Positions 1,344 to 27,942 are shown, counted from the stretch's first letter. The stretch: DNA of 32,000 nt from Pseudomonas aeruginosa (GCF_001457615.1 NZ_LN831024.1:2730001-2762000); one strand, 5' to 3'. Notes: a model not told the origin generated them from the sequence alone. Translations and numbers: made by a program.

Positions 1344-4223
<2,880 letters not shown>

Positions 4224-8306: not shown

Positions 8307-9011
8307 TCACGGGTGTTTCGGCCGCTGCCGTTGCAGGCCCAGCTTCTTGGCCCGGTGGAATACCGCTGCGCGGGTCTTGCCGGTCTGCTGCGCACACCAT
8401 AGCGAGCCGCGCTGCTGGTAGTGCTGGCGCAACAGATCTTCCTCGGACTTGCTCCAGATCGCATTGTTGCGGTCGCGCCCGCTGTGCGGGGAAAGCTCCT
8501 CGGCCTTGCTGGCGACACTCTGGTAGCTGCGGCCGAGCATGTAGGCGCACCAGGCCAGGCTGCGCTTGCTGCCGTGGCGGCGGATGAACTCGACTTCTTC
8601 GCTGGACCAGGCGGCCGGTGCCTTCGGCGGCGCCTTGCGGTCCAGCGAGCGGGCGAGGGCGGCGCGGGCGCGCGCCACCGCCTGGTCGCCGGGATTGTTG
8701 CGGCGGGTCACGCCGAGGGCGCGGCGCCAGCGCCCCACCAGGCTCGGACTGAAACCCCACCAGAACTGCACCGACTCGGCGCATTCGGTACGTACCGCGC
8801 GCAGCAGGTCGCCGCAGAGAATCGGCGAAGGGCGGCCGCTGCGCTTGCGCGTCGGCCAGCGGAACAGGCCGTCGGTGAAGCCGCCGACCTCCACGGCGCC
8901 TTCCAGCTCGTCGACCAGCCAGTCGCCGGGGATCACCAGTGGGCTGGTGTAGGGCGCGCCGAGCAGCAGGTGGTTGATGGTAGCGACAGAGGTAGGGGTG
9001 TCTGCAGTCAT
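8307..9011 (-). CDS. Hypothetical protein with three Myb/SANT-like helix-turn-helix repeats
   Basis: The start is placed at ATG 9011 (MTADTPTSV) with an AAGGA SD. The protein is 234 aa. Two repeats read WSSEEVEFIRRHGSKRSLAWCAYMLGRSYQSVASKAEEL and WSKSEEDLLRQHYQQRGSLWCAQQTGKTRAAVFHRAKKLG, and a degenerate upstream copy reads SVQFWWGFSPSLVGRWRRALG. The track ORF extension to 9458 is Arg/Pro-rich and unsupported. Confidence 0.75.
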   Translation of the reverse strand: MTADTPTSVATINHLLLGAPYTSPLVIPGDWLVDELEGAVEVGGFTDGLFRWPTRKRSGRPSPILCGDLLRAVRTECAESVQFWWGFSPSLVGRWRRALGVTRRNNPGDQAVARARAALARSLDRKAPPKAPAAWSSEEVEFIRRHGSKRSLAWCAYMLGRSYQSVASKAEELSPHSGRDRNNAIWSKSEEDLLRQHYQQRGSLWCAQQTGKTRAAVFHRAKKLGLQRQRPKHP

Positions 9012-9178
9012 GGGACGATCCTTGCTGATACCGGGCCAGCTGGGCTGGCCATATCCCTGAGAGCGGCGTCGCTGCGGCATGGCGGGCGACGGCGCGTTCG
9101 CTTCCCGTGGTTCGGGCGGTCTTCCGGCGGAGGGCGACTGCCTGTCGCGCCTCCTTGGGAACGGGCTGGAAGCCATGC

Positions 9179-10141
9179 TCATGGGCGGGCTCCACGATAG
9201 ATGTGCCAGGCCAGCCGGCCGGGACGGGCGGCGATCGCCGCATCCACCTCGATGCGCGGCAGGTCCAGCGGGTCGCAACGGGTATCCACCAGGCCATTGC
9301 GCGCGCCGAAGGCGAAGCGGTAGCCAAGCCGACCGAGGGCGGCGCGCAGGCCGGGTTGCGCGGCGGGTGTGGTACGAGCTTGGCAGAACACCGGCAGGGG
9401 GGCGGCGCAATGCTGCTGGAGCTGGCGGTGGGCGCGGCCGAGACAGTCCTCGGCGCAAAGGCCTGCCGATGGGTGCGGCTCCTGTCCGCGCAGGCCGAAG
9501 CGAAGCAGGCCGCTGTTTTCCAGGCGGCGGACCCGCTCCCAGTCGCCAGCGCTGTACAGTGCGGGAACCGGGCAGGCCGCGTGCAAGGCCTGCTGCGAGG
9601 CCGGGTCGAGGCGTTCCAGCTTGCGCAGGAGGAGGTCGAGGTTGCGGCTGCGACGCTGGTCGTCGCCGGTGCGTTCGAACACCGCCATGAGTGCCGCGCC
9701 GCTATAACCCTCCAGCAGTTCCAGCAAGGGTCCGGCGGCAGTCGCATCGGCCTGCCAGAGCGTCTCGGCCACCGCTTCGCGCCAACTGCGCGGGTCACCG
9801 CCGATGAAGGCGCTCGCCGGCATTTCGTAGCGTTCCAGCAGCGGATAGACCTGCTCGGCCAGTTCCGCAGGGTTGCCGTCGACGCTCAGGGCGATCCGCA
9901 GGCAGGCTGGAGCGGGGCCTTCGAGCAGGTGTTCCAGGGGAACGCAGAGGAAGTGCCGCTGTAGCCATAGCAACAGGGTTTCCAGGTCCTGACGATCGAG
10001 GCAGTGACCTTGCCGGTGCGGCAGGGTCGCGCGCCGGCGATCCGCGACTACCGGTCCCAGGCGCAGCACGATACCGTTCTGGCGCAGCCGGCGCTGGCCT
10101 ACGGAGGAGTTCAGGAACGTCATCCCGATCAGGCTTCGCAT
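9179..10141 (-). CDS. Polysaccharide-deacetylase (NodB)-like protein with degenerate catalytic motifs
   Basis: 320 aa with good codon bias. It follows the NodB-like order of blocks: IALSVDGNPAE where TFDDG is expected, LLERYEMPASAFIGG, and ENSGLLRFGLRGQEPH where the His-His motif is expected. A GGGGGAAG SD precedes ATG 10141. Confidence 0.65.
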   Translation of the reverse strand: MRSLIGMTFLNSSVGQRRLRQNGIVLRLGPVVADRRRATLPHRQGHCLDRQDLETLLLWLQRHFLCVPLEHLLEGPAPACLRIALSVDGNPAELAEQVYPLLERYEMPASAFIGGDPRSWREAVAETLWQADATAAGPLLELLEGYSGAALMAVFERTGDDQRRSRNLDLLLRKLERLDPASQQALHAACPVPALYSAGDWERVRRLENSGLLRFGLRGQEPHPSAGLCAEDCLGRAHRQLQQHCAAPLPVFCQARTTPAAQPGLRAALGRLGYRFAFGARNGLVDTRCDPLDLPRIEVDAAIAARPGRLAWHIYRGARP

Positions 10142-10828
10142 GGCTTCCCCCGGCTCATCGACGATCCGTCACCGGCGATCGTTCCCTGCGCGCGGCAGGG
10201 CTTTCGCCAGCCTGTCCGGAGGCTGTGCCATGGACTCCGGCCCCGGCAGTCGATTCGGTCATGGGCGAGCCTCCTGGGGTAATCCGCACAAACGTTTGCT
10301 GCGACCACGCAATGCGTGGCTCGAACCGGGGCTTGGCGAGGCCCCGGCGGTTGTTCGATAAGGACTGCATGGCACCGGATAACGCTACAAAGGATCGATA
10401 TGATTCTTTTTTGACGCTATCACAGTCGATGGTCGGATTATTGACGCTCTGCCGCTGTTATAAAACCGTCAGGCTATGCGAAAAGGCCTGCCGGCTACGC
10501 GTCGAGGCCCGGAATGGCGTGCCTTTGCGGGGGAGATGAGGGCTCCGGTAGGCCTATGCGGATTGGTTATAAGAAATCCGATTTGAATGAAAATTGCCGA
10601 CGAATGGTCGTTTGCACGGATGTCCGGTGGTTTTTCCCGGCTGCTTAGAACCTTTCGATTGGTTAGGTGTTGCCCAGGGTGCTGCACACAGACTCTCGTC
10701 TTCCAGTCAAGAGCCTTGGGATGCAGACTGTTTTTCAAATCATGACAACTTCTTAACGCGCATTGTTATAAAGTTGCGGGCGTTTGCGCCGGCCTGGCCG
10801 GTACCTTCGAGTTTTGCCTGGAGTGAAG

Positions 10829-12829
10829 ATGAGAGTCGACCTGGACGCCGAGGGCGTCGCCGCCGAATCGCTGCCGCGTTTCCAGCAGGCGCCCCGGCAG
10901 TTGCGCCAGCTGTGGCGATGGGCAGCGGCCAGCGTCGCCTTGGCCGCCGCCTGCGCCGTGCTGGGGTTCTTCATCGGCCTGTTCGCCGCCGACTCGCTCT
11001 GGCCGCCGCTGCTGTACAACCTCGGCGCGGCCTGGCTGGTCCTGTTCGCCGGTCTGCACGCGGCCTACCGGGTCGCGGCCTGGCGTTGCGTGGTCCTCGG
11101 CGCGGAGGCCAGCGCGCGGCCTGCCTGGCTGCGCTGGCAGCGGGACGAACCCGACGCCACCGCCGACAGCGCCTATGAACGGCTGCTGGAGCGCCTGGGC
11201 CAGGCCATCGCCCACGGCCTGGCCCAGCTCGGGCACGCTGCGCTGTGGCTGGCGGCGAGCGCGGCGCTGGCGTTGTGCTTGGTAGCCGCCGGCTGGCGTC
11301 TCGACCTGCCGCCGGCCAGTTCCGGGCAAGCGGCCGACCTCGCCATCGGTATCTGCCTGCTGCTGGCCTTCGCGGTGCTGGTGCTGGAACGTCGCCTCGC
11401 CAGCCAAGGGCCGGCGCAGTGGCCGGAAGCCCCGGTCCTCGGGCAACTGGCGCGGGCGTTGATCGGTACCCTGGTGCTGGCCGCCCTCTGTCTGTTCCTG
11501 GCTCGCCAGGGACACCCCTGGGCCCCGCGCCTGGCGGTACTGCTCGGCCTGTTGCCGGCGGCGCTGGCGCTGGAGTTGCTGGGCAGGGCGATCCTGGCGA
11601 TGTTCGCGCCGCAGCGTGCCGGCCTCGAACCGCGCCTGGTCGCCACCAGCCTGCTGGCCGACCTGTTGCGCTGGCCGCCGCGTCCCCTGCAGCGTCTGCA
11701 GCATGAGTTGCACCAGCGCTTCGGCATCGACCTGCGCCAGGTCTGGGCCTTCGGTTTCATGCGGCGGGCGTTCCTGCCGGTGCTGGCGGTGGTGTCGCTG
11801 AGCGGCTGGCTGCTCAGCGGCGTACGCGAGATCGGCATGGATGCACGGGGTGTCTACGAGCGCTTCGGCAAGCCGGTCGCGGTGCTCGGCCCCGGCCTGC
11901 ACCTGGGGCTGCCCTGGCCGCTGGGGCGGGTGTTGGCGGTGGAGAACGGGGTGGTCCACGAGTTGGCCACCAGCGTCGCCGCCGGCGACGGCGGAGCCGA
12001 GCCGCTCGCGCCCGCCGAAGGTCCGGCCCCGGATAGCGCCAACCGCTTGTGGGACGCCTCCCACGTCAGCGAGAAATCGCAGGTCATCGCCAGCCTGGCC
12101 GACCGTCGGCAGAGCTTCCAGATCGTCAACATGGACGTGCGCATCGTCTACCGCATCGCTCTCGACGACGCGGCAGCGCTGGCGGCGACCTACCGCAGCG
12201 CCGACGTGCCGACGCTGGTGCGCAGCACCGCCAGCCGCGTACTGGTGCATGCCTTCGCCTCGCGGACCCTCGATGAGGTCCTCGGCGAGCAGCGCGCGGG
12301 CCTGGCCGAGCAGATCGGCCAGGCCGTGCAGGCCGATCTCGACCGCCTCGGCAGCGGCGTCGAGGTACTGGGCGCGGCGGTCGAGGCGATCCATCCGCCG
12401 GCCGGTGCGGCGAACGCCTACCACGCGGTGCAGGCCGCGCAGATCACCGCCCAGGCGCTGATCGCCCGCGAGCGCGGGCAGGCCGCCGCGCAGCGCAACG
12501 AGGCGCAACTACAGGCCAGCGTGGCGCACGACCGGGCCAGCGCGCAGGCCCGCGAGACCCTGGCCGCCGCGCAGGCCGCCGACCGGCGTTTCGCCGCCGA
12601 GCGGGAAGGCTATGCCGACGCCGGCCAGGCTTTCCTGCTGGAGGCCTACTACCGCCAACTCGGACGCGGCCTGGGCAAGGCCAACCTGCTGCTCATCGAC
12701 CACCGCATCGCCGGCGCCGGCGCGCCGACCATCGACCTGCGCAGCTTCGGCCTCGGCCGCCTGGATTCCCCGTCTTCGTCCCGTCCGTCCGCCGCTCCGG
12801 CGTCCGCGGCCGGGCAATCCGCACCATGA
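10829..12829 (+). CDS. SPFH/band-7 (HflK-like) protein with a ~330-aa polytopic N-terminal membrane domain
   Basis: The start is placed at ATG 10829 (MRVDLDAEG) with a GGAG SD at 10820-10823. Multiple hydrophobic segments fill the first half. They are followed by an SPFH core (GVYERFGKPVAVLGPGLHLGLPWPLGRVLAV, FQIVNMDVRIVYRI, AIHPPAGAANAYHAVQAAQ) and an Ala/Gln/Arg-rich coiled-coil tail. Confidence 0.85.
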   Translation: MRVDLDAEGVAAESLPRFQQAPRQLRQLWRWAAASVALAAACAVLGFFIGLFAADSLWPPLLYNLGAAWLVLFAGLHAAYRVAAWRCVVLGAEASARPAWLRWQRDEPDATADSAYERLLERLGQAIAHGLAQLGHAALWLAASAALALCLVAAGWRLDLPPASSGQAADLAIGICLLLAFAVLVLERRLASQGPAQWPEAPVLGQLARALIGTLVLAALCLFLARQGHPWAPRLAVLLGLLPAALALELLGRAILAMFAPQRAGLEPRLVATSLLADLLRWPPRPLQRLQHELHQRFGIDLRQVWAFGFMRRAFLPVLAVVSLSGWLLSGVREIGMDARGVYERFGKPVAVLGPGLHLGLPWPLGRVLAVENGVVHELATSVAAGDGGAEPLAPAEGPAPDSANRLWDASHVSEKSQVIASLADRRQSFQIVNMDVRIVYRIALDDAAALAATYRSADVPTLVRSTASRVLVHAFASRTLDEVLGEQRAGLAEQIGQAVQADLDRLGSGVEVLGAAVEAIHPPAGAANAYHAVQAAQITAQALIARERGQAAAQRNEAQLQASVAHDRASAQARETLAAAQAADRRFAAEREGYADAGQAFLLEAYYRQLGRGLGKANLLLIDHRIAGAGAPTIDLRSFGLGRLDSPSSSRPSAAPASAAGQSAP

Positions 12830-13860
12830 GGAGAGCGCTCTTGAGCCTCGGTCACTCCCACTCGCACAGCCACCACGAGCATCATCACGATCACGATCAC
12901 GATCACGGCCATGGCGCACAGGCCGCGCCGCCCTGGCGCCGGCTGCTGGTCGCCGCGCTGCTGGTGCTGTTCGCCGTCGCCGCCGCTTGCCTGGTGCAGG
13001 TACGTTCCGGCGAGGCGATAGTCATCACCCGTTTCGGCAACCCGGCGCGGGTCCTGCTCGAACCGGGCCTGGCCTGGCGCCTGCCGTTGCCGTTCGAGAG
13101 CGCGATCCCGGTCGACCTGCGCCTGCGCACCACCTCCAGCGGCCTGCAGGACGTCGGCACCCGCGATGGCCTGCGGATCATCGTCCAGGCCTACGTGGCC
13201 TGGCAGGTCCAGGGCGACGCCGACAACGTGCAGCGCTTCATGCGCGCGGTGCGCAACCAGCCGGACGAGGCTGCCCGGCAGTTGCGCACCTTCGTCGGCT
13301 CGGCGCTGGAAACCACCGCCAGCGCCTATGACCTGGCCGACCTGGTGAATACCGAGGCGTCGCGGGTGCGTATCGGCGACTTCGAAGCGCGCCTGCGCGA
13401 ACAGATCGACCATCAGTTGCTGGCGACCTACGGGGTCAAGGTGGTGCAGGTCGGCATCGAGCGCCTGACCCTGCCCAAGGTGACCCTCGGCGCCACCGTC
13501 GACCGCATGCGCGCCGAGCGCGAGACCATCGCCACCGAGCGTACCGCCGAGGGCCGTCGCCAGGCCGCGGAGATCCGTTCGGCGGCGGAGCGCGACGCCC
13601 GGGTGATCCAGGCCGAGGCTTCGGTGAAAGCCGCGGAGGTCGAGGCCCAGGCACGGGTCGAGGCGGCGCGCATCTACGGCAAGGCCTACGCCGGTTCGCC
13701 GCAGCTATACAACCTGCTGCGCTCGCTGGACACCCTCGGCACCATCGTCAACGGCGATACCCGGCTGGTCTTGCGCACCGATGCCGCACCGTTCCGCGTG
13801 CTGGTCGACGGGCCGCCGGCGCTCCCCGCCGAAGCGCCGGCCAACGGGCGCCGGCCATGA
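12826..13860 (+). CDS. SPFH/band-7 (HflC-like) protein with a His-rich N-terminal tail
   Basis: Its ATG overlaps the upstream stop (ATGA at 12826-12829). The N-terminus reads GHSHSHSHHEHHHDHDHDHGHG and is followed by one TM segment (LLVAALLVLFAVAAACLV). The SPFH core follows (GEAIVITRFGNPARVLLEPGLAWRLPLPFESAIPVDLR). Confidence 0.9.
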   Translation: MRRALLSLGHSHSHSHHEHHHDHDHDHGHGAQAAPPWRRLLVAALLVLFAVAAACLVQVRSGEAIVITRFGNPARVLLEPGLAWRLPLPFESAIPVDLRLRTTSSGLQDVGTRDGLRIIVQAYVAWQVQGDADNVQRFMRAVRNQPDEAARQLRTFVGSALETTASAYDLADLVNTEASRVRIGDFEARLREQIDHQLLATYGVKVVQVGIERLTLPKVTLGATVDRMRAERETIATERTAEGRRQAAEIRSAAERDARVIQAEASVKAAEVEAQARVEAARIYGKAYAGSPQLYNLLRSLDTLGTIVNGDTRLVLRTDAAPFRVLVDGPPALPAEAPANGRRP

Positions 13861-14897
13861 GCGGCGAAGCGCACGAGGGGCTGCGCAGCCCCTGGCTGCA
13901 GGCCGGACGCCTGGCGTTCCTCGCACTGTTCGGCGTGACCCTCCTGGCGGCGCTGGCCTGGGCGTTTTCCAACGTCCGTCAGATCGGCCCGGAGAACCGC
14001 GCCGTAGTGCTGCGCCTGGGCGCGCTGGAGCGCCTGGCCGGTCCCGGCCTGCTGCTGGCCTGGCCGCAGCCGCTGGAGCAGGTGGTGCTGCTGCCGTCCG
14101 CCGAACAGGTGATCGAACGCCGCGTCGAGGGCCTGCTGCGTTCCGAGCAGGCGCGTCGCGCCGATCTCGACGTCAGCCTGTCCAGCGACGCGCTGGCCGG
14201 CTCCGGCTACCTGCTGACCGGCGACGCCGGGGTGGTGCAACTGGACGTGCGGGTGTTCTACAAGGTCGACGACCCGTACGCCTACGTCCTCCAGGGCGCC
14301 CACGTGCTGCCGGCGCTGGACCGGCTGGTGGCGCGCAACGCCGTGCAGGTCTGCGCCGCGCGCGACCTGGACACCATCCTGGTGGCGCGCCCGGAGTTGC
14401 TCGGCAACGACAGCGCGGTCGCCGAGCGCCGCGAACGCCTGCGCGGCGACCTGGTGCAGGGCATCAACCACAGCCTGGCGGCGTTGGCCGCGGCCGGCAG
14501 CGGGCTGGGCATCCAGGTGGTGCGGGTCGACGTGCAGTCGAGCCTGCCGCGCAATGCGGTAAGCGCCTTCAACGCGGTGCTGACCGCCAGCCAACTGGCC
14601 GAGCAGAACGTCGCCAAGGCGCGCACCGAGGCGGAGAAACTCACCCAGGCCGCCACCGAGGGGGCCGACCGCACCCTGCAGCTCGCCCGCGCCGAGGCCG
14701 GCGAACGGCTGGCCCAGGCGCGCCGCGACACCGCCAGCATCGTTGGCCTGGCCCCGGCGCTGGGCGCGACCGATGCCGGCCTGCTCTGGCACCTGTACCG
14801 CGAACGGGTGCCGGCGATCCTCGGCAAGGCCGGTTCGGTCGGCAGCGTCGATCCGCGCGACGATGGCCGCCTGATTCTGCAAGGTGGGCAGCCATGA
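13857..14897 (+). CDS. Third SPFH/band-7 family protein
   Basis: An ATGA overlap occurs at 13857-13860. The protein has an N-terminal TM segment (LAFLALFGVTLLAALAWAF), then ENRAVVLRLGALERLAGPGLLLAWPQPLEQVVLLP and GDAGVVQLDVRVFYKVDDPYAYV, and an Ala-rich coiled-coil region. Confidence 0.85.
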   Translation: MSGEAHEGLRSPWLQAGRLAFLALFGVTLLAALAWAFSNVRQIGPENRAVVLRLGALERLAGPGLLLAWPQPLEQVVLLPSAEQVIERRVEGLLRSEQARRADLDVSLSSDALAGSGYLLTGDAGVVQLDVRVFYKVDDPYAYVLQGAHVLPALDRLVARNAVQVCAARDLDTILVARPELLGNDSAVAERRERLRGDLVQGINHSLAALAAAGSGLGIQVVRVDVQSSLPRNAVSAFNAVLTASQLAEQNVAKARTEAEKLTQAATEGADRTLQLARAEAGERLAQARRDTASIVGLAPALGATDAGLLWHLYRERVPAILGKAGSVGSVDPRDDGRLILQGGQP

Positions 14898-15050
14898 GCC
14901 GCTGCCCGACGGTGCCCTTCGCGGGCTGTGAAACAATGGACGGACAAGCGAACGTGAAACGGCTACCCTGCGTCGGCATCAACCTTCGGTACGCGCTTCC
15001 GCCAGCGGAACGCGGCGCCGAGTCGAACAACCAGGCGAACGGGACGGGCA

Positions 15051-15485
15051 ATGACGGCAGGCGGTATTCCATTCACGGGCAACGGTGCGCGGCTATCACC
15101 CGGCAGGGCCCTGCTGTGCGGGCTGGCGCTGTTGCTGTGCGGCGGCGAGGCGCTGGCGCGGCAGTTGCCGAGCGACATGCTGGTGGGCTTCGTGGCCAGC
15201 GCGCAGTACCCGGTCATCACCCTGAAGAAGCCCAAGCAGAGCCTGCTGCGCAGCGTGCTCACCCTGGGGCTGGGGAAGAAGACCGTCAGCTATTCGGTGG
15301 CGCCGTCGGTGCGCATCCGCACGGCGCAGAACCTGTTCATCGTCTATGGCCGCATGCCCCAGCTCAAGGGCAGTTTCGTCGGCCTGAAGAGCGACAACAA
15401 CGGGCAGGTCAAGCAGATCTGGGAGCTCACCGAGAAGGAAGCCCTGGACTACGTACGCCGGCCGGACGCGCGCTTCCCGCAATAG
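15051..15485 (+). CDS. Hypothetical secreted protein (signal peptide)
   Basis: 144 aa with very high GC3 and typical codons. A predicted signal peptide reads ALLCGLALLLCGGEALA followed by RQ. ATG 15051 is the only start codon after the in-frame stop at 14955. Confidence 0.7.
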   Translation: MTAGGIPFTGNGARLSPGRALLCGLALLLCGGEALARQLPSDMLVGFVASAQYPVITLKKPKQSLLRSVLTLGLGKKTVSYSVAPSVRIRTAQNLFIVYGRMPQLKGSFVGLKSDNNGQVKQIWELTEKEALDYVRRPDARFPQ

Positions 15486-15513
15486 CCGCCGCGGCTCGCC
15501 CCGGGAGGTGCGC

Positions 15514-17499
15514 ATGAGCGAGCCGACCGCCCACGGCAGCCATGGCGGCTGCGCGCATCACCATCATCACCTGCCGTTCGGCGGCGGCCTGCTCAGCCGC
15601 GACGAGCAGCGCCGCGCCGCGCGCCAGCTGAGCCTGGCGATGCTCGCCCTCGGCCTGTTGCTGCTCGGCCTGGCCTGGCGCTGGCTGGCGGCGGACCAGG
15701 CCGGGGTCAGCCAGATCCTGCTCGGCGTCGCGTCGCTGCTGGTGGCGCTGCCGGTGGCCCGCTCGGCCTGGGACAGCCTGCGGCATCCGAGCCTGCACGG
15801 CGTCACCGACCAGTTGATCGCGCTGGCCATGCTCGGCGCCTGGGCCAGCGGCGACCTGCTGACCGCCGCGCTGCTGCCGATCATCATGATCTTCGGCCAC
15901 GTGCTGGAGGAGCGCAGCGTGATCGGCTCCCAGGAGGCCATCGCCGCCCTCGGCGAGCTGACCCGCAGCCATGCCCGGCGGATCGAGGCCGACGGCAGCC
16001 TGAGCGAGGTGGACAACGCCAGCCTGCGAGCGGGCGACCAGGTGGAAGTGCGCGCCGGCGACCGGGTTCCGGCCGACGGGCGGGTCCTGCAGGGCCAGGC
16101 CAGTCTCGACACCGCGCCGATCACCGGCGAGTCGGTGCCGCTCGAGGTGGCGCCGGGGATGGAGGTCTACGGCGGCGCGATCAACCTCGACGGCCTGCTG
16201 CGCATCGAGATAACCCGTACCGGCGAGGCCTCGACCCTGGGCAAGGTGATCGGCCTGATGCAGCAGGCCGAGCGCGCCAAGCCGCCGATCACCCGCCTGC
16301 TGGAGCGCTACGCCGGGCAGTACATGTTGCTGGTGTTGCTGATCGCCGCGGTCACCTGGTTCGTCACCAACGATGCCCAGGCCATGCTCGCCGTGCTGGT
16401 CGCCGCCTGTCCCTGCGCCCTGGTGCTGTCCGCCCCGGCCACGGCTATCGCCGGGATCGCCGTGGCCGCCCGTCATGGCATCCTGATCCGCAGCTCGGCC
16501 TTCCTCGAGGAACTGGCGGACCTGACTTCGCTGGTGGTCGACAAGACCGGCACCCTGACCCATGGCAGCCTGCGCCTGCAGGCGCTGCGCCTGGCCGATG
16601 CCGCCGAGGAGGCGTCGGTGCTGCGCCTGGCCGCTAGCCTCGGCGCCGCCAGCAGCCATCCGGTGAGCCGAGCGCTGGCAGCCCTGGCGGCGCACGATGC
16701 CTATCATCCATTGAGCGATATCCGCGAACGCCAGGGGTTCGGCGTGGTCGCACGAACAGCGGCGGGCGAAGCCGCCCTCGGCCGGCCCGAACTGTTCCAG
16801 CAACTGGGCATCGACGCCAGCGAGGTGCCGGAGCATGAGGGACCGATCGCCGGAATCGCCCTGGACGGGCGCTTCCTCGGCTGGCTGCTGCTGGCCGACA
16901 GCGTACGCGCGGAGGCCGCCGAGGCCCTGGCCGATCTGCGCGAACTGGGTCTGGGCCGGCAACTGTTGCTGACCGGCGATCGCCGGGCGGTGGCCGACGC
17001 CGTGGCCAAGCAGGTGGGGATTCGCCAACTGGTGGCGCAGGCGTTGCCGGAGGACAAGCTGCGCCAGGTCGGCGCGGAGATCGGCAGCGGTTTCCGGCCG
17101 ATGGTGGTCGGCGACGGCATCAACGATTCGCTGGCGCTGAAGGCCGGTGTGGTCGGGGTGGCAATGGGCGCCGGCGGCGCCGACATCGCCCTGGCCTCGG
17201 CGGATATCGTGCTGATCGGCAGCGACCTGCGCCGCCTCGGCACCTGCGTGCGGCTCAGCCGGCAATGCCGGCGGACCCTGCAGGTCAACGTGGCGATCGG
17301 CCTCGGCTGGACCCTGGCGATCGTCGCCGCGGCAGCCTTCGGCCTGCTCGGCGCGGCCGGGGCGATGGTCGCGGCGCTGCTGCACAACCTCAGCACCTTG
17401 CTGGTGCTGGGCAATGCCGGACGCCTGCTGCGTTTCGAGGAGCCCCTCGGGCAGCCCCGGCCGGCCGTGGAGGGACGCGAAGAGGAGGGTACACCGTGA
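15514..17499 (+). CDS. hmtA: P1B-type heavy-metal transporting ATPase with a His-rich N-terminus
   Basis: ATG 15514 has a GGGAGG SD 5 nt upstream. The transmembrane CPC motif is at 16408-16416, the phosphorylation motif DKTGTLT starts at 16540, and the hinge GDGINDS is present. The N-terminus reads HGSHGGCAHHHHH. The symbol comes from my recollection that this locus (PA2435) is HmtA. Confidence 0.93.
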   Translation: MSEPTAHGSHGGCAHHHHHLPFGGGLLSRDEQRRAARQLSLAMLALGLLLLGLAWRWLAADQAGVSQILLGVASLLVALPVARSAWDSLRHPSLHGVTDQLIALAMLGAWASGDLLTAALLPIIMIFGHVLEERSVIGSQEAIAALGELTRSHARRIEADGSLSEVDNASLRAGDQVEVRAGDRVPADGRVLQGQASLDTAPITGESVPLEVAPGMEVYGGAINLDGLLRIEITRTGEASTLGKVIGLMQQAERAKPPITRLLERYAGQYMLLVLLIAAVTWFVTNDAQAMLAVLVAACPCALVLSAPATAIAGIAVAARHGILIRSSAFLEELADLTSLVVDKTGTLTHGSLRLQALRLADAAEEASVLRLAASLGAASSHPVSRALAALAAHDAYHPLSDIRERQGFGVVARTAAGEAALGRPELFQQLGIDASEVPEHEGPIAGIALDGRFLGWLLLADSVRAEAAEALADLRELGLGRQLLLTGDRRAVADAVAKQVGIRQLVAQALPEDKLRQVGAEIGSGFRPMVVGDGINDSLALKAGVVGVAMGAGGADIALASADIVLIGSDLRRLGTCVRLSRQCRRTLQVNVAIGLGWTLAIVAAAAFGLLGAAGAMVAALLHNLSTLLVLGNAGRLLRFEEPLGQPRPAVEGREEEGTP

Positions 17500-18041
17500 G
17501 GCAGGCGCAAACGCGACGCAACGGCTGGCGCTGGCTGGCCCTGGCGGTCGGCACGCTGTCCGCGCTGAGCCTGGCCGAGGCGTCGATGGCGCGCTGGCCG
17601 GCGGGCTGGCAGGTCAGCGACCTGCCCGCCGCGCAGCCCGGCCAGGCCGGCGCCGGCCAGCGCCAGCGCGCGGTCAAGTTGCAGGCAGACGGCTCCCAGG
17701 CACTGGTGATGGAGGTGACGCGGATGCCCCTGCAGAGCGGGCAGGCAGTGAACCTGGAGAAAGTCCTCGGGCACATGCGCAAGCTGGTGCAGATCGAGTT
17801 CCTGCGCAACGGCCTGCAGACCGCCTGCACCTCGCCGCAGCCGTCCACCACCGGCGGGCTGGCGGCGCTGGAGACCACCTGCACCATTCGCCAGCGCGGC
17901 GCCGTGGTGATGAAGCAGACCTTGCTCGCCGCGGCCGGCAAGACCTCGGCCTATTCGCTGTCCTATGCCGGCCTGGCCGAGGCCTACGACGCCAGCCAGG
18001 CGGAAATCCGCGCGGTACGGGAAAGCCTGCGCTTCGAGTGA
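17496..18041 (+). CDS. Hypothetical secreted protein, translationally coupled to the ATPase
   Basis: The GTG start overlaps the ATPase stop (GTGA at 17496-17499), and an AGGAGG SD lies 7 nt upstream. A signal-peptide-like N-terminus reads WRWLALAVGTLSALSLAEA. The protein is 181 aa. Confidence 0.65.
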   Translation: MRQAQTRRNGWRWLALAVGTLSALSLAEASMARWPAGWQVSDLPAAQPGQAGAGQRQRAVKLQADGSQALVMEVTRMPLQSGQAVNLEKVLGHMRKLVQIEFLRNGLQTACTSPQPSTTGGLAALETTCTIRQRGAVVMKQTLLAAAGKTSAYSLSYAGLAEAYDASQAEIRAVRESLRFE

Positions 18042-18079
18042 GCGAAATCGGACGCGGTCGGGGCGGGGGCTGGAGTGTC

Positions 18080-18158
18080 GGCGGATAACGCCTGCGGCGC
18101 TATTCGCCCTGCGGAGGGTCGCATTGGGGTAGGACGGATAACCGCTTGCGGTTATCCG
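18080..18158. repeat. Two tandem REP-like palindromic elements between convergent genes
   Basis: The first is an imperfect hairpin, GGCGGATAACGCC (18080-18092) with GGCGCTATTCGCC (18096-18108). The second is near-perfect, 18135-18158 CGGATAACCGCttGCGGTTATCCG, and is preceded by GTAGGA. This is typical REP architecture. Confidence 0.5.
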
Positions 18159-18176
18159 CCTTGCGTCTGTCGCGGA

Positions 18177-18446
18177 TCATTTCTTGCCGGTGTTCTGCAG
18201 GATCTGCAGGGCCTGGGTGGTGGCGGTGATGCAACCTTTGGTGTCGCCGCTGGCCTGGTCCTGCCTGGCCTTGGCCTGGAGTTCCTTGACCTCGGTGACC
18301 CGCGCACCGGTGACCGAGGTCTTGCCGCGCACGGCGAGGATATCGTCCAGCTTCTGCAGGTTGGCGCCGCACAGGTCGGTGCTTTCGGCGGCTTGGGCGG
18401 TGCCGCCGAGCAGGGCGGCGGCGATGAGCAGGGTACGCACGATCAT
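18177..18446 (-). CDS. Small secreted hypothetical protein (89 aa, two Cys)
   Basis: The start is placed at ATG 18446 (MIVRTLLIAAALLGGTAQA, then AESTD) with an AAGGAG SD. The N-terminus is a clear signal peptide. Confidence 0.7.
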   Translation of the reverse strand: MIVRTLLIAAALLGGTAQAAESTDLCGANLQKLDDILAVRGKTSVTGARVTEVKELQAKARQDQASGDTKGCITATTQALQILQNTGKK

Positions 18447-18560
18447 GGCAGTTCTCCTTTGTGGGCCGAGTGGCCGGACGGGGGAGAGACGACAGGCTCC
18501 TGGGAGTCTTCTCCGCATGCCCAGTATCTGACCGGAGCCTCGCGGGAATGGTTCGGTCGC

Positions 18561-19475
18561 TCAGCCGTTGCCCCAGGGCGGGATCGACAGCGCCTGCTGG
18601 AGATGCTGGATGAACGCCTTGACCTTCGGCGACATCGCCGCCGCCCGCGAATACATCGCGTAGATCACGTCGTCGAGTGGGCGCAGGCCGGGCGCGGCGT
18701 CCACCAGGCGGCCGTTCTTGAGGTCCTCGGCGACGATGAACAGCGGCAGCAACGCCAGTCCCTGGCCGCGCAGGGCGGCGTCGCGCATGGCCTGGCCGTT
18801 GTTGCTGCTGAAGCGTCCGCGTGGCGAGACGGCACGGGGCTTGGCGCCGGGGAACGCCGGTTCGAAGGTCCAGACCTGGCTCGGCGTGGCGTTGTTGTAG
18901 CCCAGGCACTCGTGCTGCATCAGTTGTTCGAGGGTGTCCAGCGTGCCGTGGCGTTCCGCGTAGTCGGGGCTGCAGCAGACCACCCGCTGGCTGTTGGCCA
19001 GCGGCCGGGCGATCAGCGAACTGTCGTCCAGGCGGGTGACGCGGATGCTCAGGTCGTAGCCTTCCTTCTCGAAGTCGGTGAGGCGGTCGTCCATCTGCAG
19101 GACGATCTCCAGGCGCGGGTGCTGGCTCATGAAGTCGGCGATGATCGGCGACAGCCAGAGGGTGCCGAAGCTCATCGGGGTGACGATGCGCAATTCGCCG
19201 CACAGGTCGTTCTCGCGCAGGGCGACGATCTCCGCGGCGTTGTTGAGTTCCTGCAGCGAGGCCTTGGCGGCCTTGTAGAAGAAATGCCCGGCCTCGGTCG
19301 GCTCGACGTTGCGCGTGGTGCGGTAGAGCAGGCGGACGCCGAGGCGTCGTTCGAGATCGCTGACACGCTTGCTGATCACCGACTTGGACAGGCTCATGCG
19401 CTCGGCCGCCGACGTCACGCTGTTGAGTTCGGCGACGTTGAGGAAGGCTTCGATATCGTCGAAACGCAGGCTCAT
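18561..19475 (-). CDS. bexR: LysR-family transcriptional regulator
   Basis: The N-terminal HTH reads FLNVAELNSVTSAAERMSLSKSVISKRVSDLERRLGVRLL and is followed by a LysR effector domain. The start is placed at ATG 19475; the track start at 19487 is a GTG. The symbol comes from recollected synteny (PA2432) and was not verified. Confidence 0.88.
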   Translation of the reverse strand: MSLRFDDIEAFLNVAELNSVTSAAERMSLSKSVISKRVSDLERRLGVRLLYRTTRNVEPTEAGHFFYKAAKASLQELNNAAEIVALRENDLCGELRIVTPMSFGTLWLSPIIADFMSQHPRLEIVLQMDDRLTDFEKEGYDLSIRVTRLDDSSLIARPLANSQRVVCCSPDYAERHGTLDTLEQLMQHECLGYNNATPSQVWTFEPAFPGAKPRAVSPRGRFSSNNGQAMRDAALRGQGLALLPLFIVAEDLKNGRLVDAAPGLRPLDDVIYAMYSRAAAMSPKVKAFIQHLQQALSIPPWGNG

Positions 19476-24880: not shown

Positions 24881-25894
24881 ATGCCCCTGTTGAATTCCCT
24901 GACTGTATTGCCGTTGCCTGGCGGGCAGCGTTTGAGTGGCGACGAAACCGATAGCCGGCTCAGCCTTGCCCTGGATGGTGCGTTGCTGTTGCGCCTGCGC
25001 CTGGAGCGCACAGACACGGAAATACGGCTGGCGGTGGAGGAGCTTCCCGGCGGCGATGCCGAGCATGCGTTGTGGGCCGCCAGCTACTGGCTGTTCGCCC
25101 GCGATCCGGATTGCCAGCGGCTCGTCTGGTCGCTGTCCTGGGAACCCGAAGAGTCCCTGGCGAAGGGGATGCTGACAGGAGCCGCCGCAGCGGGCACCTA
25201 TGTCTGCGAGAGGGGCCGGTTCTGGCAGTTGCCATGGCCCTGGCTGCCGCTTGCCCAGCCGTGCTATCCCCAGTCGATGCAACTTACCGATGGAAAGCGT
25301 CATCCGCTGCGCCGGCCGAAGCCCAGGGGAGAGGTCTACCGGCGCTTCGATGCGCGATTGGGATGCTGGATATCCTTGCGTACCCTGGACATCGAGAGGG
25401 ACCTGGAGCGTTTTCATCGCTGGCAGAACTCGCCCAGGGTGGCGGAGTTCTGGCAGGAGGATGGAAGCCTGGAACAACATCGCGAGCGTTTGCGCCAGCT
25501 CGAGGCGGATCCTCATGCACTGGGGCTCATCGGCTGTTTCGACGATGAGCCCTTCGCCTATTTCGAGGCCTACTGGGCGAAGGAGGATCGCATCGCGCCG
25601 TTCTACGTGGCCGAAGACTACGACCGCGGGATCCACATGCTGGTCGGCGAGGAGGCCCACCGGGGTCCGCACAAGGTCGCCTGCTGGCTATCGGCACTGG
25701 TCCACTACCTGTTTCTCGACGACCCGCGCTCGCAGCGAGTGGTGGCGGAACCGCGCGCAGATAACGCGCGGATGATCGGTCACATGCACAACCTGTGCTT
25801 CCACTGCGAGAAGGAGTTCGACTTTCCGCACAAGCGGGCGGCGCTGATGATCATCGGCCGCGAACGGTTCTTCGAGCGCTGTCGTCTGGCCTGA
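24881..25894 (+). CDS. pvdY: IucB-like siderophore N-acyltransferase family protein
   Basis: 337 aa. The C-terminal half matches the siderophore acetyltransferase pattern (FHRWQNSPRVAEFWQE, FEAYWAKEDRIAPFY, RGIHMLVGE, VAEPRADNARMI). An IS box lies upstream and the gene sits next to pvdS. Confidence 0.85.
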   Translation: MPLLNSLTVLPLPGGQRLSGDETDSRLSLALDGALLLRLRLERTDTEIRLAVEELPGGDAEHALWAASYWLFARDPDCQRLVWSLSWEPEESLAKGMLTGAAAAGTYVCERGRFWQLPWPWLPLAQPCYPQSMQLTDGKRHPLRRPKPRGEVYRRFDARLGCWISLRTLDIERDLERFHRWQNSPRVAEFWQEDGSLEQHRERLRQLEADPHALGLIGCFDDEPFAYFEAYWAKEDRIAPFYVAEDYDRGIHMLVGEEAHRGPHKVACWLSALVHYLFLDDPRSQRVVAEPRADNARMIGHMHNLCFHCEKEFDFPHKRAALMIIGRERFFERCRLA

Positions 25895-26534: not shown

Positions 26535-26603
26535 GGAAATCACCTTGCTGCGGAGGGGGCTGCAGAGCACTGGCGGTGGGGTAAGACCCACACATGGCGC
26601 AAC

Positions 26604-26636
26604 AAATTATGTTGAATGATAATGATTGTCAATTAC
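26604..26636 (-). promoter_or_regulatory. pvdS sigma70 promoter overlapped by a Fur box
   Basis: On the minus strand the promoter reads TTGACA (26632-26627), 17 nt, TAATTT (26609-26604). The plus-strand 19-mer GATAATGATTGTCAATTAC (26618-26636) matches the Fur consensus GATAATGATAATCATTATC at 13 of 19 positions and covers the -35 and spacer. Confidence 0.7.
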
Positions 26637-26910
26637 GAAGAAATAACCAATCTCACCTTTATTCGTGAATGGTCCGCATGCTGGCAAATAGCCGCTGCGA
26701 ATGATGGAGGGGAGAAATTCTTCGGCGTTTCAGAAGGATGGCCGCGCCAATGTTGCAGTCATGCGTCGCAGACGAAATTTTTTTAATAATCTTTAGGAAT
26801 CAGCTAGTTAGAAATCGTTATTGACCGCCTCGCCGCTCCTGCCGGCGTTCCGCGCAAGAACTGCGCTAAGGCGCTGCGACAACCGTTCCCGGCTGCTCCA
26901 TGGCGTACAT

Positions 26911-27045: not shown

Positions 27046-27177
27046 TCCCCTCTGTGACAGCGCGGGCAGGTGCCCGGCGCCCCGGCGTGCGCAGCAGGAG
27101 ACGGAAATGCCGATCGATCATGGGAAAGCGCTCTGCCCCGGACGAGGGCCACGACAGCGGCGCAAGGAGGTCGGCAG

Positions 27178-27942
27178 GTGAGCCCGGCCGTTTCCCTGCA
27201 ATTGTTCTGCCTGCCTTATTCGGGGGCCAGCGCCACGCTGTTCCGCCGCTGGCAGCCCAGCCTGCCGGGCTGGATCCGCTTGCTGCCCCTGGAATTGCCG
27301 GGGCGCGGCCTTCGCTTCGGCGAGGCCCTGCATACCGATGCCGCCAGCCTGGTCGCGCAATTGGCCGGCGAGCTGCACGGCACCCTCGATAGCGCTTCTC
27401 CCTACGCCTTCTTCGGCCACAGCCTGGGCGGGCTGCTGGCCTTCGAACTGGCCCATGCCATGCGTCGGCGCGGCCTCGAAGGGCCGCTGGCGCTATTCCT
27501 CTCCGGCGTATCCCCGCCCGCCGAAAACGATGTCAGCGGCTACCGGCGCGCCAAGGCCGACGCCGAACTGGTCGCCGCGTTGCGCGACTACCGGGGTACT
27601 CCGGAGGCCGTCCTCAACGATCCGTCGCTGATGCAGATGCTGTTGCCAGTGGTGCGAGCGGACTTTCTCGTCACCGGCAGCTACCGCTACCAGGCGCATG
27701 GGCCGCTGGAAGCGGCGCTGCACCTGTTCGGCGGACGCGAGGACAGCCTGCGCAGCGCCGAGTTGCTCGGCTGGCTGCATGAGGCCGGGGGCGACTTCAC
27801 CCTCGACCTGCTCGACGGGCAGCACTTTTTCATCCGTGAACAGCAGGGGCAGTTGCTGCGCCTGCTGCGTCGCTACGCCGGCCAGCATCTGCTGCGCTGG
27901 CACAAGGACAAGGTCCGGGGAAGCATGCGCGCCGCCAGTTGA
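27178..27942 (+). CDS. pvdG: Type II thioesterase of pyoverdine synthesis
   Basis: The GTG start at 27178 has an AAGGAGG SD at 27164-27170, giving 254 aa. It begins LQLFCLPYSGASATLFRRW and carries the nucleophile elbow FGHSLGG. The track ORF start at 27070 is unsupported. Confidence 0.9.
   Translation: MSPAVSLQLFCLPYSGASATLFRRWQPSLPGWIRLLPLELPGRGLRFGEALHTDAASLVAQLAGELHGTLDSASPYAFFGHSLGGLLAFELAHAMRRRGLEGPLALFLSGVSPPAENDVSGYRRAKADAELVAALRDYRGTPEAVLNDPSLMQMLLPVVRADFLVTGSYRYQAHGPLEAALHLFGGREDSLRSAELLGWLHEAGGDFTLDLLDGQHFFIREQQGQLLRLLRRYAGQHLLRWHKDKVRGSMRAAS

Follow-up and report, generated by a model that had tools for sequence, protein, structure and literature searches.

Six same-strand genes in a 32,000-nt stretch of the Pseudomonas aeruginosa chromosome (~70% G+C; "the window" below means this whole stretch) probably form a Zur-repressed zinc-starvation operon with a four-gene core, in which an assembly of SPFH proteins is dedicated to a P1B ATPase of the HmtA type, acting as its scaffold and lending it a metal-binding domain in trans. 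The core encodes three SPFH paralogues, termed S1, S2, and S3, and the ATPase (the pump); two small proteins with signal-peptide-like N termini complete the set. The gene order is that of the published PA2439-PA2434 cluster, whose members have been named HflK family (PA2439), HflC (PA2438), HflC family (PA2437), HmtA (PA2435), and hypothetical (PA2434) (PMC4542158). The S2 protein is 97-98% identical to proteins attributed to P. aeruginosa. The four core genes are translationally coupled, and the module is kept in order from Pseudomonas to Acetobacteraceae and to a metagenome-assembled genome (MAG) of the Planctomycetota.

The evidence for a dedicated partnership comes first from gene order, which was followed in both directions. 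In the forward direction, genomes were scanned with an alignment of S2 homologues, giving 80 loci from 80 Pseudomonas species representatives, and these were compared with the window proteins by tblastn. The S1, S2, S3, and pump genes lie in the same order and on the same strand in all 80, and the genes that flank them in P. aeruginosa (gcvT, PA2440, PA2433, the LysR regulator, and FUSC) recur only in Pseudomonas paraeruginosa (L001). In the one locus examined in detail, that of Pseudomonas fluorescens (L009), every junction among the four genes is a 4-bp overlap, and the flanks are unrelated. A more distant set was built on nine S1 homologues with 33-44% identity in alignment A2, among them those of Pokkaliibacter, Acetobacteraceae MAGs, and the Planctomycetota MAG. 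All nine loci contain one long and two short SPFH genes with a P-type ATPase gene, tightly packed in unrelated surroundings, and the Planctomycetota pump is 59% identical to HmtA. S1 homologues are numerous: an exhaustive profile-free search found at least 208 clusters (50% identity) matching S1 at E<1e-30, and most of the 150 representatives among the matches listed are 600-700 amino acids (aa) long and align over most of the query.

In the reverse direction, metagenomes were scanned with a degenerate DNA pattern for the last-helix motif of the pump, HN[LV]xTLxx[LM][GA]N[AT]GRLL. This motif was built from module pumps, so it defines their clade and is no sample of all P1B pumps. Among the 80 loci returned, the testable ones were the 47 whose sequence extends 400 bp or more 5' of the inferred pump start, and 45 of these have SPFH genes directly upstream on the same strand; where at least 4.3 kb of upstream room was available, S1, S2, and S3 are all present (14 of 14 loci). 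Pump identity to the reference modules ranges from 57% to 94%. Two apparent pumps without SPFH genes (L104 and L126) proved to be only 272-275-aa 3' remnants of the pump gene. An earlier note on this DNA had proposed that the SPFH triad corrals or gates the pump and had itself named absence of their synteny outside very close relatives as a reason to abandon the idea; the synteny extends through all three sets of loci, and the functional link is the part of that proposal upheld by two-way linkage. Genes for ftsH, hflX, or hfq were not found among the called genes of the window or the nine distant neighborhoods, nor was an NfeD domain found in the neighbors of the distant modules. Conservation of the four-gene core over such distances suggests that the scaffold serves the pump specifically and does not regulate FtsH.

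A second line of evidence is a mobile His-rich tail. Codons 10-31 of S2 (12853-12918) encode a His/Asp-rich segment with the motif HSHSHSHHEHHHDHDHDHGHG, and residues 10-29 hold 12 His. The S2 N terminus is probably cytoplasmic and its SPFH domain periplasmic, because the positive-inside rule (WRR precedes the S2 helix) and homology to HflC both indicate this orientation. An S2 tail with 11-21 His is present in every one of the 80 Pseudomonas loci. The cytoplasmic N terminus of the P. aeruginosa pump is His/Cys-rich as well (HGSHGGCAHHHHH), and a clearly His-rich pump N terminus (8 or more His+Cys) is found in only 4 of the 80 loci, those closest to P. aeruginosa; the P. fluorescens pump has no His in this segment. 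Among distant modules, the tail may be confined to S2 (L084 and several metagenome loci), present on S2 and the pump alike (L085, L096), or carried by the pump alone (L086, L087, L208). A tail that alternates between two cytoplasmic N termini of one operon would be expected if these termini are adjacent and the tail can act in trans. This alternation is the strongest sequence-level hint of physical partnership, and it suggests that the tail is a metal-binding domain supplied in trans. The expectation that a cytoplasmic S2 tail handles metal alongside the pump N terminus is likewise supported, with the tail on S2 throughout Pseudomonas, on the pump rarely there, and on the pump instead in other lineages.

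Zinc-responsive regulation was assessed with a symmetrised position weight matrix (PWM) derived from nine published PAO1 Zur boxes, which themselves score 21-33. The best site in the window, TTGTTATAAAGTTGCGG, lies 50 bp 5' of the S1 start and overlaps a -10-like TATAAA (10767-10772); by the promoter assignment made here, this hexamer could be the -10 element, with ATGACA 19 bp upstream. Orthologous Pseudomonas promoters have a stronger palindrome, TCGTTATATCGTAACGA, scoring ~20 and placed 41-110 bp upstream. Of the 80 Pseudomonas loci, 79 have a GTTATA-containing Zur-box-like palindrome within ~130 bp 5' of S1 (the scan placed that of L029 only at -260), and in 63 the S1-upstream site scores highest by PWM over the whole 20-kb locus. 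The Pokkaliibacter module has a box scoring 22.2 at -91. Because boxes are present in both Pseudomonas and Pokkaliibacter, Zur control is ancestral to the module within these Gammaproteobacteria and has weakened in P. aeruginosa. The alpha-proteobacterial and Planctomycetota modules have no Zur box by the Pseudomonas PWM, which is uninformative as their Zur motifs may differ.

RNA-seq, binding, and proteomics data in the literature agree with this picture. The cluster is induced 5.6- to 14.4-fold in a znuA mutant and was assigned a weak Zur site (E=0.11) (PMC4542158), and an electrophoretic mobility-shift assay detected Zn-dependent binding of Zur to the PA2439 promoter (PMC8531726). A 2025 proteomics preprint reports PA2435, PA2437, PA2438, and PA2439 as increased under zinc depletion, the increase being significant for PA2438 only, in the data-dependent acquisition data, one of two methods (PMC11761036). 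The two marks of a Zur regulon member, a 17-bp palindromic box and de-repression under zinc limitation, are thus both found here, the box at 11.0 in the window and ~20 in orthologues. Gene context also connects the module to zinc uptake. In one contig (P0213) it is co-oriented with, directly 3' of, and overlapping an operon encoding ZnuA, a protein of no assigned function, ABC_tran, and ABC-3; in another locus (L087) it is divergent from Znu-type ABC-3/ABC_tran genes; and in a third (L209), 5 kb 5' of the module, there is a strong Zur box at genes for a TonB-dependent receptor and TonB. The earlier note's proposal of a role in metal acquisition is therefore supported by Zur boxes, by published induction and binding data, and by Znu genes adjoining the module in two distant lineages. 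Its statement that no functional description was known goes too far: Zur regulation of the cluster and its induction when zinc is limiting were already in print. A functional account of the SPFH genes was not found in the open-access literature.

Two side observations concern zinc-related genes near the module. In L087, genes at 2246-2530 (-) and 1790-2227 (-) are divergent from the module and upstream of the ZnuC/ZnuB-type genes. The first encodes a 94-aa protein with a ribbon-helix-helix-like N terminus and a Cys/His-rich C terminus (CPVC...CRRC...C..H), which could be a metal-responsive regulator; the second encodes a 145-aa protein of no known family, and Pfam returned only a weak DnaJ Cys-rich match. 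Because it lies between the module and these ABC genes, the second gene was considered as a candidate Zur; it has no Fur-family Pfam match. Separately, L020 and ~14 other Pseudomonas loci have very strong extra Zur boxes 10-13 kb 3' of the S1 start and a few kb beyond the module (for example, TTGTTATACTATAACAT, scoring 31.7), which imply that those species have another Zur-regulated cluster nearby.

All three scaffold proteins are SPFH proteins by Pfam, with Band_7 matches in S1 (residues 334-552, E=4e-28), S2 (E=7e-31), and S3 (E=1e-18). With the NCBIfam hflK model (TIGR01933, cut-off 159.4 bits), S1 scores 65.6 and S3 81.6 bits, and S2 scores 111.9 bits with the hflC model (TIGR01932, cut-off 134.4 bits), so that none reaches the curated equivalog cut-offs. 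By these comparisons S1 and S3 appear HflK-like and S2 alone HflC-like. The triad of the earlier note is thus confirmed and its typing corrected, since S3 joins S1 on the HflK side and only ORF2 is of the HflC kind. The SPFH halves of S1 and S3 are 27% identical; S2 is too diverged from both for BLASTP detection, and its nearest solved chain is HflC 7vhp_G.

S1 has the architecture first ascribed to it: a polytopic N-terminal domain of ~330 aa (10829-11827, ~7 predicted membrane helices) precedes the SPFH domain, and residues 527-615 form a long predicted helix that fits the coiled coil. Its SPFH domain is probably periplasmic, because seven helices are predicted and the positively charged loops are on the even-numbered side. 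The AlphaFold2 model (predicted local distance difference test, pLDDT, 78.5) matches HflK 7vhq_E over its C-terminal half (E=1.5e-10), as well as every solved cage-forming SPFH protein, with cage subunits of stomatin, prohibitin, erlin, flotillin, and QmcA among the matches. The signature of an SPFH/Band_7 domain followed by a long C-terminal coiled-coil helix is therefore represented here by Band_7 domains in all three proteins and by the match of the S1 model to HflK. Modeled alone, the S1 N-terminal domain is a helical membrane bundle (pLDDT 83, predicted template modeling score 0.76) with conserved residues E187, R188, E249, R253, and D301. As a side observation, two separate Foldseek searches returned sub-threshold matches of this domain to the membrane domains of cation diffusion facilitator (CDF) zinc transporters (YiiP 8f6h/8f6i, ZnT7, ZnT1); these are not significant (probability 0.5-0.77, template modeling score 0.36 or less), and CDF metal-site motifs are not conserved, yet their recurrence is curious in a zinc setting.

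The pump is a P1B ATPase with a His-rich N terminus, as the earlier note described it. Pfam matches E1-E2_ATPase (E=6e-53) and Hydrolase (E=6e-21), CPC is at 299-301, DKTGT at 343, and GDGINDS is present. It scores above the cut-off of TIGR01525 (537 bits against 346) and of the general heavy-metal model TIGR01512, falls far below those of the CopA and ZntA models (for ZntA, 286.6-317.6 bits against 1005-1240), and also fails the other NCBIfam equivalog models. ZntA has a conserved Lys (K693) and Asp (D714) in its last two helices. The P1B-2 class combines CPC with these residues; the pump has the CPC, with GLGWT at the place of the Lys and LLHNLST at that of the Asp. The P1B-4 class combines SPC with HEGxT; the pump has CPC rather than SPC in its transport helix and HNLST in its last helix, aligned with HEGST of sCoaT. 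Its nearest solved chains are sCoaT 7qbz (264 bits) and ZntA 4umv (257 bits). CPC, GLGWT, and HN[LV][SG]T recur in the pumps of seven of eight modules compared, a hybrid signature that appears to fit neither P1B-2 nor P1B-4. The sole exception, the L081 pump (14089-15996), has CPA for CPC and QNFS for HNLST, and its metal specificity may have changed or been lost. Review summaries, drawing on overexpression phenotypes, present HmtA as a stand-alone importer of zinc and copper in an important pathogen: in a heterologous host, overexpression is reported to have raised cellular zinc and copper and to have caused hypersensitivity.

The proposed mechanism draws these elements together. S1, S2, and S3 would together build a hetero-oligomeric ring or cage, as HflK and HflC do, with periplasmic SPFH domains and cytoplasmic N termini, a capacity indicated by the match of the S1 model to HflK and other cage-forming proteins and by the pairing of K-like S1 and S3 with C-like S2. 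The pump, and not FtsH, would be the client. Its likely, if speculative, in-membrane adaptor is the membrane domain found in S1 alone, because this domain sets the triad apart from HflK/HflC and because the pump has almost no periplasmic surface. The S2 tails would provide an in-trans metal-binding domain beside the cytoplasmic face of the pump, where they may accept zinc (or copper) released by an importing pump and buffer it for hand-over; if the pump exports, the tails would feed it instead.

Several points weigh against this scheme. The S1 N-terminal domain belongs to no known family, has no significant fold match in the PDB, and contains no conserved His or Cys. Hardly any part of a P1B pump is exposed in the periplasm, the predicted site of the SPFH domains, and the pump is put forward as the client from gene linkage only. 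In two modules (L081, L083) neither S2 nor the pump has a tail, a rare arrangement which implies that the partnership can do without it. The Zur box of the window itself scores low (11.0, where the training sites score 21-33), and hmtA mRNA has been reported as constantly low with no response to zinc (PMC8531726). As to import, all solved relatives of the pump are exporters, and the claim goes back to heterologous overexpression as cited in reviews.

This last point leads to an alternative that retains the partnership and reverses the pump. The S2 tail would capture scarce cytoplasmic zinc and feed it to an exporter, in the way of PacL1 and classical N-terminal metal-binding domains, and the periplasmic cage would confine the metal so that zinc enzymes of the envelope can be metallated under starvation. 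Consistent with this idea, the closest of the solved exporters is the P1B-4 protein sCoaT, cytoplasmic N-terminal metal-binding tails are typical of exporters, and PacL1/CtpC, a precedent taken up below, is an efflux system. It is nevertheless unlikely, given the rise in cellular zinc and copper and the hypersensitivity that reviews report on HmtA overexpression, a Zur repression and fusion to a znuABC-type operon that fit uptake better, and the counterintuitive nature of zinc export during starvation. Zinc import or allocation under starvation is favored, because metal accumulation has been published and the module is fused to or neighbors znuABC-type genes; regulation points in the same direction.

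A different client is implied by current annotations and by literature that labels the SPFH genes FtsH modulators (PMC9431628, PMC11761036): the trio would be alternative HflK/HflC modulators of the zinc metalloprotease FtsH under zinc starvation, and the pump would merely be co-regulated. Homology to HflK and HflC and the zinc dependence of FtsH speak for this reading. It becomes quite improbable because all three proteins fail the equivalog tests, no ftsH (nor hflX or hfq) was found nearby in the window or the nine distant neighborhoods, and a near-obligate two-way linkage to one pump clade across phyla is hard to explain with FtsH as client; moreover, HflK lacks the 330-aa membrane domain of S1. 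Least convincing, and very improbable, is that scaffold and pump serve zinc starvation independently, the SPFH genes perhaps in general membrane stabilization, and are linked only by a shared promoter, for although two modules have no His tail at all, order, coupling, and co-occurrence persist where flanks, and presumably regulators, differ completely, the reverse search found no intact pump of the clade without the triad, and the tail alternates between S2 and the pump.

Within the favored reading of a scaffold dedicated to the pump, a bolder version can be put forward tentatively. The module may be the first bacterial SPFH ring or cage with a transporter as its dedicated client, the pump being enclosed, recruited via the S1 membrane domain, and served by a ring of S2 tails in place of its missing metal-binding domain; such pumps might form a distinct, widespread, scaffold-dependent subclass. 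If so, this may explain the disputed inward direction of HmtA, and SPFH biology would gain a genetically tractable bacterial cage that serves a transporter. Should the four proteins prove to be a single machine, the descriptions of HmtA as a stand-alone importer and of the SPFH proteins as FtsH modulators both need revising, and studies of HmtA alone, including the heterologous import work, may have examined an incomplete system. The module is also a clear, testable model for in-trans metal-binding domains. The cluster and its regulation were already known; in the open-access literature, with subscription-only papers outside the search, the conserved module and the mobile His tail were not found described, and neither was any paper on an SPFH-pump module beyond P. 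aeruginosa expression studies or any functional account of the SPFH genes.

The two small proteins fared differently from the core. The PA2436-like protein has no Pfam or NCBIfam match and occurs in 3 of 80 Pseudomonas loci (L001, L003, L007) and, among 89 other loci, only in P. aeruginosa-like L096. The PA2434-like protein is a DUF4946 member (E=3e-76, Pfam) found in 1 of 80 (L001) plus L096, all P. aeruginosa- or P. paraeruginosa-like. Neither has a metal-binding signature, with zero His in PA2436 and one in PA2434. Their inclusion in the system by the earlier note is not borne out, as PA2434 is restricted to P. aeruginosa-like loci and PA2436 to these and two further species; both are lineage-specific additions outside the core, probably periplasmic accessories acquired in the P. 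aeruginosa lineage.

The arrangement of the block (Table 1) is as first reported, with six same-strand open reading frames (ORFs) separated by tiny or negative spacers. Overlaps of 4 bp join S1 to S2 (ATGA, 12826-12829), S2 to S3 (ATGA, 13857-13860), and the pump to PA2434 (GTGA, 17496-17499), and gaps of 153 bp and 28 bp precede 15051 (S3-PA2436) and 15514 (PA2436-pump). Shine-Dalgarno sequences are present 5' of ATG 10829 (GGAG) and ATG 15514 (GGGAGG).

Table 1. Coordinates of the gene block and associated sites in the window
Feature	Position	Strand	Description
Weak Zur box TTGTTATAAAGTTGCGG	10763..10779		PWM score 11.0, best in the 32-kb window
ORF1 / S1 (PA2439-like)	10829..12829	+	Predicted polytopic N-terminal domain, HflK-like SPFH domain, long coiled-coil helix
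ORF2 / S2 (PA2438-like)	12826..13860	+	HflC-like SPFH protein, one membrane helix, predicted cytoplasmic His/Asp-rich N-terminal tail
ORF3 / S3 (PA2437-like)	13857..14897	+	HflK-like SPFH protein, one membrane helix, without His tail
PA2436-like small protein	15051..15485	+	Signal-peptide-like N terminus, zero His
HmtA-type P1B ATPase (PA2435)	15514..17499	+	E1-E2_ATPase and Hydrolase domains, CPC
PA2434-like DUF4946 protein	17496..18041	+	Signal peptide
Weak terminator-like hairpin and T-rich run	18161..18185	+	5-bp stem, 3' of the last gene

Consensus scans found no promoter-like site within the gene block (10829-18041) and, over 10100-18600, no terminator-like site before 18161. The hairpin at 18161-18185, the sole terminator-like site over that span, is a candidate operon end only, the count of such sites being no higher than expected by chance. 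An internal promoter, terminator, or attenuator was considered as the reason why hmtA mRNA differs from that of the SPFH genes; the scans were empty within the block, and for the S3-PA2436 gap folding showed no gain over shuffled sequence (z=+0.46). An Rfam scan of the whole window returned no families. NfeD and FtsH domains were absent by Pfam from the six ORFs and from the larger neighboring ORFs scanned, bearing out the original remark that neither is encoded here.

To the left of the block are gcvP, glyA, sdaA, and gcvT, and to the right a LysR regulator, a FUSC protein, an HlyD protein, a GNAT protein, and a thioesterase. The intergenic region 5' of S1 (10141-10828) is unusually long (~690 bp) and lower in G+C (61%); it contains two more GTTATAA motifs, at about 10457 and 10566, that score low by the Zur PWM. 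The sole sigma-70-like consensus match of the region also lies here, on the minus strand at 10464-10437. Between gcvT and the module, overlapping ORFs of 383 and 320 aa (8307-9458 and 9179-10141, both minus strand) have no Pfam or NCBIfam match, and the 320-aa ORF is just 71% conserved in P. paraeruginosa, against ~90% or more in surrounding genes. Farther right, an A+T-rich segment (26600-26800; G+C dip to 58%) between the GNAT (24881-25894) and thioesterase (27070-27942) genes gave the next-best false matches of the Zur PWM. It contains ATGATAATGATTGTCAATTACGA, which in our own reading resembles a Fur box, and a pyoverdine region looks to start here.

Among characterized systems, Escherichia coli HflK/HflC-FtsH (PDB 7vhp, 7wi3, 9cz2) provides the best sequence and fold matches of the triad. 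Both systems pair K-like and C-like SPFH proteins, those of E. coli having one N-terminal membrane helix each, and share periplasmic SPFH domains (predicted here), long coiled-coil helices, and adjacent, coupled genes. The module differs in having three paralogues rather than two, the additional ~330-aa polytopic domain of S1, the His-rich tail of S2, and scores below the equivalog cut-offs for S1, S2, and S3; in the loci examined it is never beside hflX/hfq or ftsH and always beside a P1B ATPase. Integral membrane clients or partners are also engaged by SPFH rings in complexes of eukaryotic stomatin with membrane transport proteins (for example, stomatin-aquaporin 1, PDB 9zd2) and in SPFH-NfeD pairs such as QmcA-YbbJ (PDB 8z5g), and the S1 model matches stomatin and QmcA chains at E 1e-6 to 1e-8. 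Here, in contrast, there is no NfeD partner, the client is suggested by gene linkage, and the assembly would consist of three different proteins.

The pump shares the P1B core (DKTGT, GDGINDS, CPx) with the P1B-2 (ZntA/CadA) and P1B-4 (sCoaT/CzcP-type) groups. Unlike either, it mixes the CPC of P1B-2 with a P1B-4-like HN-x-x-T in the last helix, without the ZntA Lys and Asp, is reported as an importer, and is always encoded with an SPFH triad.

The closest functional parallel is the PacL1/CtpC effluxosome of Mycobacterium tuberculosis (PMC9374683, PMC13043812), in which a membrane scaffold with a DLHDHDH zinc-binding motif stabilizes a P1B ATPase (PMC9374683). In both cases an operon pairs a P1B ATPase with a membrane-anchored scaffold bearing a cytoplasmic His/Asp motif (DLHDHDH there, HSHSHSHHEHHHDHDHDHGHG here); the mycobacterial scaffold is small and is a proposed pump stabilizer and metal donor. 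PacL is, however, a DUF1490 protein confined to Actinobacteria rather than an SPFH protein, and its foci are flotillin-independent. Pfam detected no DUF1490 in any of the six ORFs, and the resemblance is functional only. The PacL system is induced by metal excess and exports, whereas the present module is probably Zur-repressed and is linked to uptake genes. If the proposed partnership is correct, the principle of a scaffold paired with a P1B pump, so far mycobacterial, would extend to Gram-negative bacteria and to metal starvation instead of excess.

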